Of a DNA stretch of 64,000 bases, positions 5,237-7,992 are shown one piece after another. The DNA comes from Albugo candida. Taxonomy: Eukaryota. The DNA lies in contig JBDOQK010000026.1 in the NCBI GenBank assembly GCA_040437565.1, forward strand, positions 310,001 to 374,000, given 5' to 3'. Both the position numbers and the translations under genes were made by a program. The notes under the pieces were generated by a model. That model was not told the DNA's origin. It made no database searches and was given only the letters and a program-made list of their open reading frames with translations. Position 1 is the first letter of the stretch. Each line of letters starts with the position of its first letter.

Positions 5237-7992
5237 ATGGTTCAAACAAATCGTCATACCCGGCATGACCTTTCATCAGCTGATGCAGCTTCCGCATACA
5301 TTGATCAAAGAATACAGCAGATACAGAAGCGTATTCGAACAGAATTAGGTTTCCAAGAGATAAGTGTTGGCTCGAAACGACGGGTGACTACAGACTCATT
5401 GACATCCTCTTCGTCTTCTGGTCGTCCAGCGGTCCAAATGTCTCGATCCTCGGAAACGAGCGAAGGTTTCTGCAATATATCCATGCAAAAACCACAAAGT
5501 TCGCTTGTGTCTTCCAAGGAAGCGCGTGATTGTTCAAATCAGAAATACTCTCGATCCATTGAGGACTCAATGGAAGCTTCACCGACACCATCTTCCTTTG
5601 AAACAGACTCGATGATGAAGCGTTTGAATGCTGAATATTGCACGGAATGTATCAAAGGCACCGTTTACGTATCACCATCGTACGAACGTAAGCAGAGATT
5701 ACTTGTCATCATTCCGTATCGGGAGGCTTGTATATGGAGTCGGAGTATTTGTATGCAGAAAGATTCCAGCGCTCAGGACGATTTAGGGTCTATGATGGGG
5801 TATCTTCGTAAAGCGATTAGCGAGAACTATGGTGTGATAATTATGAATCCGGCTGCACAGAGTTGTCATCCTCAGAATCATGTCGAACAAGTTTGGGATC
5901 AGCTTGTTGTGCCGTTATCCAGTGGTATTTTCATCATTGCTTTCTCAAGAGGAACACAGCATGTGAAGCATCTCCTTTCATATGACAATGGGATGGGAAT
6001 TGTCCAGGAACGCGTTCGAGCACTTTCCCTCGTTGAGCCGAGCCATTATGTGCATGAAAGTGACTTATACTTCACGCGACGAATTCTGGCGCGTCGAGCT
6101 GTGGCATGGATACTTTCACCGGACATTGATGTGGGACTGAAGATACCGAGTGCGGAGGCACGCCACGGATGTGTATGCATTTCCGCTGGAACCGTTCCCG
6201 TCAATGCAAAAGGAAGCAGTGGAGCTTGGGCTTTGGAGATGGTAATGACATCCGTATTTGGATCCTTTGCAGCGCGTTGTGGAGAAGCCGCTGGAGTGAC
6301 AGTTAATGATAATCGCATCTCAGCTTGTGGATTGTGTCATCGTAGACTTGGTGTGCTAAATCGGAAATTTCAATGCTCATGGTGTGAAGTTCGCTATTGT
6401 TCGCGCTGCTGTGAAGACAAGCATGTTGAAACATTTGACTGTATGCGAATTTGCATCTTATGTCAAGTATTACCTTGTCTCTTGGATCCTTATCGGAAGC
6501 AGAAAATCCAATTTTTGCTGTCGGGCGAATCGCTTGGGTCTTTGCACGATACGACCGAATTCAATCGACACGATAACATAAGTGTCTTTGTTCAGCCGAA
6601 TGGAAGCTTCAAAGTGTCACTGGCTGATTTCGAGATCATCAAACTCATTGGGCGAGGCGCTTGTGGTCGTGTGAAATTAGTTCGAAAAAAACACGGAACC
6701 GATGAAGGAATTCTGTACGCGATGAAAGCGATCAGAAAGAAACTTATCGTTCAACGTGGCTTGGTGGAGGCAACCAACGCTGAACGTCGCATTCTCGATC
6801 GGATCAAGCATCCATACATTGCAACACTTTGCTATGCATTTCAAAATGACGCAAAGCTTTATTTATTATCTAAATACTATCCTGGTGGCAATTTACTCGA
6901 TCAAATGCGTCTTGCGCGTAGATTCACAGAAGATCGAACAAAGTTATATGCAGCTGAAGTCGCATTAGCGCTTGATCACTTACACTCAAACGACATTATG
7001 TATCGTGACCTAAAGCTCGAAAATGTGCTTGTTGGATCCGATGGGCATATCGCTCTCACTGATTTTGGCATGTCTAAAGAATGCATGACTGCCAGCAGTC
7101 GAACAAGCACATTTGTCGGAACATATCAAATGATGGCACCCGAGGTATTTACGGGTCGACCATACTCTCGGGCGGTCGATTGGTGGGCGCTTGGAGTTAT
7201 GGTCTACGAAATGATCGATGGTCGAACTCCCTTCAACGCCAAAACCAATCGTCTGATTCGAGATCGGATCACAAATGTGGATCTGAAATTCTCGTCACGT
7301 TTCGCCGATGATGCAAGCGACTTTGTCGCGAGGCTACTCACCAAAGATGAGCGTAAGCGCCTCGGCAGCGGACCACAGGGATTCAAGGATATCCAATCAC
7401 ATCCATGGTTTGCATCAATCGACTGGGACAAAGTAGAAGCTAAAGAAGCGACATTTTATCGTCAAAGTGAGTTGATGTTGCGATACGCCAAAGAATTCCG
7501 AACGAGAGAGATTTGTGAGACGTTTATGAATGCCGTCGAAGTACCAGCGGACACGCCCGTGTCAGCGCATAGCTCTCGTGATGAAGACCTCTTTTCGGAT
7601 TTCACATTCAATTACATTGCCGAGACTGAACCTTCCTCGCCATCGATTTCTTCATGTATATCCTCAACCTCATTCAAAACTGTGGAGTTTGAGGAACTTG
7701 AGGGAACGTGTTCGTCAGAGGCGAATTCGATTTTGAGTTATACTGAGGAGATTGAGGAAAAAAACGAGGATGCGTCTACCACACGCACAAACACAACAAT
7801 GCCGTCACATTTTGATACGTTGCTATTACGACCGCAGAAAGCATTAGATTTCAGGCAGACTGTAACTCCATTCACATCGCTTTGTGTTGGGATTGGAGAA
7901 AAGAGTCAGTGGAAGGATACCGAAATTGATCAAAATCAGCATTCTATCGTGAAAGACGGAATGAACTCGCTTGACATCCAAGAGTTACACGA
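5237..7992 (+). CDS. AGC-family Ser/Thr kinase with N-terminal Arb2/FAM172-like domain and FYVE-like zinc finger; 3' end falls in an N gap
   Basis: Kinase motifs GRGACGRV, YAMK, YRDLKLEN, DFG, TFVGT..MAPE and hydrophobic motif FSDFTF. Zinc finger CGLC...CSWC....CSRC...RICILC. FAM172-like LLVII...W.R.I...GSM.GY.RKA..ENYGVIIMNP...H...VWD...IIAFSRG...C.SAGT. Confidence 0.9.

Follow-up and report, generated by a model that had tools for sequence, protein, structure and literature searches.

Here we describe a gene of the oomycete Albugo candida that encodes, in a single reading frame, an Arb2 domain, an eight-cysteine FYVE-like zinc finger and an AGC-type protein kinase, and we relate it to PsZFPK1, a kinase of Phytophthora sojae with the same domain order and published knockout phenotypes. 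The gene lies at 5237..7992 on the plus strand of a 64,000-nucleotide stretch of contig JBDOQK010000026.1 (assembly GCA_040437565.1, positions 310,001 to 374,000), the whole of which we call the window and to which all nucleotide positions below refer. We consider it probable (roughly 0.75) that the Albugo gene is the ortholog of PsZFPK1 within a stramenopile family of Arb2-FYVE-AGC kinases, and that it encodes a soluble kinase in which the Arb2 domain and the finger form a docking module. The finding is already known: the gene is deposited, its architecture is published and its ortholog has been knocked out. An earlier, sequence-only reading of the window had inferred a lineage-specific kinase; the gene is no private novelty, as the architecture was published in 2010 (PMC3019232) and the ortholog knocked out in 2023 (PMC10381902). 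The architecture is thus already characterized, with no link to RNA silencing reported in the knockout study, a state of affairs that the sequence-only reading had itself named as refuting it.

Identification of the ortholog was based on a search with residues 120-460 of the translated frame (P0001), which retrieved 45 proteins at 52-73% identity, excluding an A. candida record that is 99% identical. A precomputed Pfam column lists both Pkinase and Arb2 for 40 of the 45, Arb2 only for four and the kinase only for one, these five single-domain homologs being short or partial models. All homologs that could be named (27 of the 45) come from oomycetes, namely Albugo, Pythium, Phytophthora, Peronospora, Bremia, Nothophytophthora, Aphanomyces, Achlya and Thraustotheca. 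The sole P. sojae match, P0017, is PHYSODRAFT_345221, which is 63% identical over residues 120-460, as against 22-27% for the paralogs discussed below, and 60% identical to P0001 in a full-length alignment. This locus was named PsZFPK1 by Ru et al. 2023 (PMC10381902) and, judged by sequence, the Albugo gene is its ortholog. The two proteins share an Arb2 domain, a degenerate FYVE-like finger and an AGC kinase in the same order, as well as an invariant activation-loop (T-loop) Thr; they differ in the acceptor of the hydrophobic motif, which is Ala in PsZFPK1, Thr in A. candida and Ser in A. laibachii, and in the basic motif of the finger, which reads RRIPCS in PsZFPK1 and RKFQCS in A. candida.

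This relationship allows the published biology of PsZFPK1 to be read onto the Albugo protein. The numbering of the PsZFPK1 paper equals that of P0017 minus 88, with T602 corresponding to Thr625 and A766 to Thr790 of P0001, and the N-terminal deletion of residues 2-321 maps to residues ~1-337, which take in the entire Arb2 domain. By this mapping, the N-terminal region needed by PsZFPK1 is the predicted Arb2 domain; the word Arb2 does not occur in the text of PMC10381902, where the domain is called the N-terminal region. CRISPR knockout of PsZFPK1 slowed growth, more so on nitrogen-poor medium, increased the number of sporangia, abolished oospores, lowered virulence and lowered sensitivity to rapamycin, and four elements of the protein proved indispensable for its function, namely its N-terminal region (2-321), its FYVE and kinase domains, and T602, variants T602A/D having also been phenotyped (PMC10381902). 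In the same study the FYVE motif was given as RRIPCS and the hydrophobic-motif site 766 as Ala, and a PsZFPK1-GFP fusion resembled free GFP, being cytoplasmic and strongest in the nucleus whichever domain was deleted; endosomal targeting was not observed.

The frame itself opens with an ATG at 5237 and runs for 918 residues to 7990 with no internal stop, and a 2.75-kb frame with domain matches of the E-values given below is far beyond chance. It has no stop within the window, entering instead an assembly gap of 100 N at 7993..8092 that hides the last codons and the stop; a 963-residue open reading frame (ORF) ending at 8128 was rejected as an artefact, its length being spurious because the frame had been read through the 100 N. 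A deposited A. candida protein of 928 residues (P0002) is identical to P0001 at 915 of 918 positions (99%) and is 10 residues longer, which places some 10 codons and the stop within the gap. Contigs of the sets X1/X6 and X2 (the figures for X1 and X6 are identical, and the two are probably one data set) span 5100/5145-7992 without a joint. Contigs of X1, X6 and X2 also extend past 7992, where the next letters, read by eye, encode the C-terminal residues of P0002, and in one X2 contig the space that the window renders as 100 N is filled by 816 letters. The run of N is a stand-in for sequence in which a convergent minus-strand gene has its 3' end as well. In that adjoining gene the same contigs omit 8147-8200 (54 nt), an interval whose ends CT..AC read as GT..AG on the minus strand; because RNA-derived contigs would skip such an intron-like interval, this gives a moderate hint that the kinase frame is expressed as one piece. 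None of the 9 runs that contain the stretch is recorded as RNA. The claim that 5237-7992 forms one uninterrupted ORF is thus upheld by the 918 stop-free codons and the continuous contigs, and all three domains are located as the sequence-only reading had placed them. At position 5925 the window has G where the X1/X6 and X2 contigs have A, changing Gly230 to Asp; residue 230 is Asp in P0002 and Asp or Glu in the other 24 aligned orthologs, and the difference stems either from strain variation or from an error in the assembly. An antisense ORF of 90 residues at 6046-6318 was taken as chance, lying as it does within a conserved coding frame.

The Arb2 domain, which has an alpha/beta-hydrolase-like fold, occupies residues ~140-350 (5654..6286, plus strand) and includes the landmarks LLVIIP (residues 155-160, nucleotide 5699) and CISAGT (residues 314-319, nucleotides 6176-6193). 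Pfam profile PF22749 matches the whole of P0001 at 44.8 bits (E 1.3e-11) and residues 121-358 alone at 50.2 bits, both above its cut-off of 26.8, in a match that is split into two stretches and does not wholly cover the profile. An AlphaFold2 model of residues 120-460, built from 68 aligned sequences, had a pLDDT of 81.2 and a pTM of 0.80, and its top Foldseek matches in the PDB were the Arb2 structures of Clr3 (5ikk, E 2.4e-6) and Hda1 (5j8j, E 1.7e-5) and, for the Hda1 complex, 6z6f; lipases and cutinases came next, and 24 matches in all had E <= 0.001. Together, the Pfam score and the rank of the Clr3 and Hda1 domains bear out the sequence-only reading in its proposal of an Arb2/FAM172-type domain. 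Clr3, Hda1 and FAM172A belong to the same Pfam family or clan and share the alpha/beta-hydrolase-like fold; their Arb2 domains, however, stand C-terminal to a deacetylase or alone, serve in dimerization, histone binding or AGO2 import, and, for Clr3 and Hda1, are only ~15% identical to that of Albugo at TM-scores of 0.30-0.40. The solved Arb2 domains, those of Hda1 and Clr3, are described as dimerization and histone-binding modules (PMC11878206, PMC10205598), the Arb2 domain of the histone deacetylases (HDACs) is classed as catalytically inactive in a published classification (PMC11878206), and FAM172A binds AGO2 (PMC10205598).

Conservation of the domain was examined in an alignment of 26 orthologs (alignment A1), on which the ortholog counts out of 26 are based. 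The residues invariant in 26/26 include Ser237, His270, Asp276, His310, Cys312 and Ser316, and the best-kept positions of the domain at large (W167, N204-P205, H215, W220, G239, H270, C312, S316 and G318) are all present in P0001 and recur in the majority of 130 representative relatives, whether these carry a kinase or not. By the strand order of the model these residues sit at strand ends, which is the place of the active site in alpha/beta-hydrolases, and their retention points to a conserved pocket. A two-copy model of the domain (residues 133-354), from a run in which the alignment was not used, scored 0.00 against a mark of 0.32, a figure that speaks neither for nor against a homodimer.

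Following the Arb2 domain is an eight-Cys FYVE-like zinc finger, Cys364-Cys409 (6326..6463, plus strand). Its cysteines (364, 367, 380, 383, 388, 391, 406 and 409) are invariant in all 26 orthologs and are spaced C-x2-C-x12-C-x2-C-x4-C-x2-C-x14-C-x2-C, which we take to be the spacing of EEA1-type FYVE domains. WxxD and RVC are further FYVE motifs; the finger retains an RVC-like R(I/V)C and has no Trp nine residues before the first Cys. Against the Pfam FYVE profile PF01363 it scores 18.2 bits (E 0.0028), under the cut-off of 27.8, and PF01363 is listed for 0 of the 45 ortholog-group hits in the precomputed Pfam column. The motif for binding phosphatidylinositol 3-phosphate (PI3P), defined in PMC10381902 as R(R/K)HHCR, is absent from the finger, which reads NRKFQCSWC here and NRRIPCSWC in the ortholog consensus. 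The finger has evidently retained its eight predicted zinc ligands but lost the PI3P-binding motif that its paralogs keep. The degenerate basic motif noted in the sequence-only reading is therefore real, and the loss of PI3P binding suggested there agrees with the RRIPCS motif of PsZFPK1 and with the unchanged localization of that protein on deletion of its FYVE domain (PMC10381902).

The AGC-type catalytic domain spans residues 465-725 (6629..7411, plus strand; Pkinase E 9e-60) and has its catalytic residues intact, with GRGACG at 472, AMK at 495 (Lys497), YRDLKLEN at 589, DFG at 609, TFVGT at 625 and APE at 634, followed by the turn motif DTP at 772 and FSDFTF at 786; the Pfam scan of P0001 listed no Pkinase_C match. 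The activation-loop Thr625 of TFVGT (7109..7111, plus strand), a T-loop Thr of the PDK1 type which the alignment equates with PsZFPK1 T602, is invariant in 26/26. These motifs confirm the earlier description of an intact kinase with an activation-loop Thr and an FSDFTF motif. Of its proposed Akt/S6K type, the AGC assignment holds, and S6K and Akt match no better than MSK1 and PKA: the PDB matches MSK1, S6K1, Tpk1 (yeast PKA) and Akt2 all lie at E 4.5e-72 to 2e-71. Because these four kinases match equally well, a single subfamily assignment was dropped and the class stops at AGC; the database names of the homologs vary likewise among S6 kinase, AGC and AKT. Like Akt and SGK3, which carry a PH or PX domain, the Albugo protein combines an N-terminal accessory module with a T-loop Thr and a C-terminal hydrophobic motif, and its kinase domain matches that of Akt2 at E ~1e-71; in contrast to these kinases, its accessory module consists of Arb2 and a finger that lacks the motif for lipid binding, nothing points to membrane recruitment, and most orthologs can do without the hydrophobic-motif acceptor (A in 16/26).

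This last difference follows lineages. The hydrophobic motif FSDFTF occupies residues 786-791 (7592..7609, plus strand); in alignment A1 its acceptor, Thr790, is T only in A. candida and S only in A. laibachii, being A in 16 orthologs (Phytophthora, Peronospora, Bremia and several relatives), E in three that are Pythium-like and D in five from the Saprolegniales. Since the acceptor is not conserved, most lineages appear to do without regulation through this site or to have a fixed charge in its place, and Albugo possibly retains it.

Outside the three domains, the N-terminal region (residues 1-138; 5237..5650, plus strand) is Ser-rich, variable in alignment A1 and without a Pfam match, and contains a conserved, short helix-like motif with RTELGFQE at residues ~20-40 (5294-5356). 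A second conserved motif, FDxxLLRP, lies at residues 859-866 (7811..7834, plus strand), ~70 residues downstream of the hydrophobic motif, with F859, D860, L863, L864, R865 and P866 each at least 90% conserved. Neither FDxxLLRP nor the ELGF motif is mentioned in the published passages on the family that we draw on. Overall, the Arb2 domain and the finger show about the same degree of conservation as the kinase domain.

Arb2-kinase proteins extend well beyond this ortholog group. A HMMER scan with residues 120-460 against 1.84 billion representatives gave 134 matches at E <= 1e-3, 29 at <= 1e-10 and 9 at <= 1e-30, and a kinase profile built from the orthologs found a kinase domain in 27 of 130 new representatives. 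Pfam scans of 27 longer matches (10 + 17) detected Arb2 with Pkinase in 7/10 and 11/17, respectively. Architectures included Arb2-FYVE-kinase, PH repeats-Arb2-kinase, Arb2-C2-FYVE-kinase, and Arb2 with an S15 X-Pro dipeptidyl-peptidase; these variants were seen among P0060, P0062, P0070, P0079, P0099, P0101, P0123 and P0084, one PH-Arb2-kinase belonging to Pythium oligandrum, and one relative of 2041 residues matches PH in four stretches and Arb2 in two.

Within the oomycetes, there appear to be at least three paralogous groups of Arb2-FYVE-kinases. One (P0199/P0212) comprises PsZFPK4 (PHYSODRAFT_360424) and A. candida P0212 (883 residues) and has the motif RRHHCR, with a FYVE match of 47.4 bits in its representative P0052; another comprises P. 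rubi P0056 and Aphanomyces P0067 and has the motif WRRHCR. In A. candida there is a third Arb2-kinase, P0135, of 922 residues. FYVE matches exceed the cut-off in the paralogs P0052, P0061 and P0067. These paralogs have the same domain order as the Albugo gene and are also present in A. candida, but are only 22-27% identical to it in the Arb2-finger part, keep RRHHCR or WRRHCR, and differ at the elbow of the Arb2 domain, which is GYSYGG in the PsZFPK4 group and has R or G in the P0056/P0067 group. On these motifs, the PsZFPK1 group is the branch whose finger has apparently lost the lipid-binding motif.

An Arb2 domain joined to an AGC kinase was reported for P. infestans in 2010 by Judelson & Ah-Fong, who listed two such proteins and described the combination as unseen outside Phytophthora and its relatives, with none in diatoms, ciliates or apicomplexans (PMC3019232). 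The proteins concerned, PITG_06776 and probably PITG_01365, share the Arb2 and AGC kinase combination with the Albugo gene, and since a FYVE domain is named for PITG_01365 in the legend of Figure 2 of that paper, all three parts were probably already drawn together there. In contrast to that report, we find Arb2 with an AGC kinase in two photosynthetic stramenopiles, Nannochloropsis oceanica (P0122) and Aureoumbra lagunensis (P0130), in neither of which a FYVE domain was detected at E <= 1e-5. Their presence in Nannochloropsis and Aureoumbra suggests that Arb2-kinase fusions are older and wider than an oomycete-specific invention.

In the mechanism we favor, the Albugo protein would act as a soluble kinase of growth and development that is turned on by phosphorylation of its T-loop. 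Its Arb2 domain and finger would form a rigid, non-membrane unit for protein docking or regulation, contacting a partner, a substrate or a ligand and serving neither as a PI3P-targeting device nor as an Argonaute adaptor, and a flexible linker would join this module to the catalytic domain. A 668-residue construct that includes the kinase had a pTM of 0.57, and the linker (residues 415-457) a pLDDT below 50; the fall from 0.80 on adding the kinase, together with the low-confidence linker, argues for a rigid module that is flexibly tethered and not for a fixed autoinhibited assembly. Several points weigh against this interpretation. The docking role of the Arb2 domain is something that we only infer; by query length, the TM-scores against the Arb2 structures reach no more than 0.40 and 0.30; and the invariance of Ser237 in 26/26 orthologs would also suit a catalytic role. 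The case for a single transcript depends on contigs whose RNA origin is deduced from one spliced-looking joint, the stop codon and the final 10 codons lie outside the window sequence, and the experiments concern the ortholog and not the Albugo gene itself. Because the GFP fusion has the pattern of free GFP, localization informs little beyond the absence of endosomal targeting.

The most serious competitor, which we nevertheless regard as unlikely, is that the Arb2 domain is an active serine hydrolase (an esterase, lipase or deacylase), making the protein a bifunctional enzyme-kinase in which Ser237 is the nucleophile and His270 and Asp276 complete a non-canonical triad. Ser237 lies in the elbow AFSRG, which follows the fifth strand of the model in a strand-Ser-helix arrangement, and the invariance of all three residues among the orthologs, the ranking of lipases and cutinases next after the Arb2 structures, and the retention of the Ser in 61/100 kinase-less relatives are in keeping with catalysis. 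When the secondary structure of the model is set against the sequence, however, the last strand is not followed by a His, as it would be in an alpha/beta-hydrolase; the Ser is kept in 3/26 kinase-fused relatives, with Gly in 15; other oomycete paralogs have R or G at the elbow; and the Arb2 domain of histone deacetylases is called catalytically inactive (PMC11878206). A further idea builds on the retention of the same residues in fused and free-standing proteins, with or without the elbow Ser: more than a passive scaffold, the Arb2 domain of stramenopile kinases could offer a conserved pocket in which a small molecule, an acyl group or a metal is bound, and so gate the kinase. In the PsZFPK1 group, which retains Ser237 unlike most kinase fusions, the domain might even be catalytic. 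We see this, too, as something of a long shot. Less probable again is that the finger still binds a lipid, PI3P or another phosphoinositide, and targets the kinase transiently to membranes; the FYVE-like Cys spacing, the retained R(I/V)C, the weak Pfam match and the requirement for the finger in PsZFPK1 function (PMC10381902) speak for it, while NRKFQCS (consensus NRRIPCS) in place of R(R/K)HHCR, a score below the profile cut-off, and the unaltered localization of PsZFPK1 without its FYVE domain (PMC10381902) speak against.

Two further explanations carry very little weight. The sequence-only reading had suggested that the kinase couples membrane or nutrient signals to the small-RNA machinery, its Arb2 domain recruiting Argonaute or chromatin-silencing factors. 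The binding of AGO2 by FAM172A (PMC10205598), which offers a family name and a precedent, and the description of Arb2 as chromatin- and siRNA-associated in the 2010 kinome paper (PMC3019232) point that way. Nothing in our analysis or in the passages of the PsZFPK1 paper ties the kinase to RNA silencing, however, and the phenotypes published there concern growth, sporulation, virulence and reduced rapamycin sensitivity (PMC10381902). The solved Arb2 domains that form the top structural matches belong to histone deacetylases, and the fusion of Arb2 to PH repeats, C2 and an S15 peptidase favors a generic module. With the name Arb2 coming from distant relatives, whose solved domains serve dimerization and histone binding, we find the proposed coupling unsupported and highly improbable. 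Still harder to credit is a gene-model artefact in which two or three adjacent genes have been merged into one frame. Such merging is a general risk of unannotated DNA; yet the frame is stop-free over 918 codons and spanned whole by contigs, Arb2 and kinase occur together in 40/45 homologs from many genera, the interdomain linkers are conserved among orthologs, and the P. sojae ortholog was treated as one gene and gave one tagged protein on an immunoblot (PMC10381902).

With regard to its surroundings, the kinase gene is flanked by genes for CAP/PR-1-type cysteine-rich secretory proteins, one at 492-2156 on the plus strand and the other, which has a long Pro-rich tail, at 8957-10069 on the minus strand (Pfam CAP, E 3.6e-13 and 1.4e-11 for the pair). 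Adjoining the assembly gap on the minus strand is a gene fragment at 8093-8454, which contains the 8147-8200 interval skipped by the contigs; it has no Pfam match and by eye resembles the CAP gene at 8957-10069. A 705-codon ORF at 15706-17823 on the minus strand has no Pfam match at E <= 0.001.

Returning to the reading of the Albugo gene as a soluble Arb2-finger-AGC kinase orthologous to PsZFPK1, what the present analysis adds to the published record is the identity of the essential N-terminal region of PsZFPK1 as an Arb2 domain, the breadth of the Arb2-kinase combination in stramenopiles, and the way in which the hydrophobic motif and the elbow Ser differ from lineage to lineage. Recognizing the essential region as Arb2 provides a structural handle, in that Ser237, His270, Asp276 and the conserved pocket become open to mutation. 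Arb2-kinase fusions form a large family, with PH, C2 and FYVE variants and two members in photosynthetic stramenopiles, and are not a lone oomycete oddity. The authors of the knockout study suggest these kinases as possible oomycete-specific fungicide targets (PMC10381902). For researchers in oomycete signaling, the Arb2 identity of the region and the breadth of the family are useful, if modest, points.

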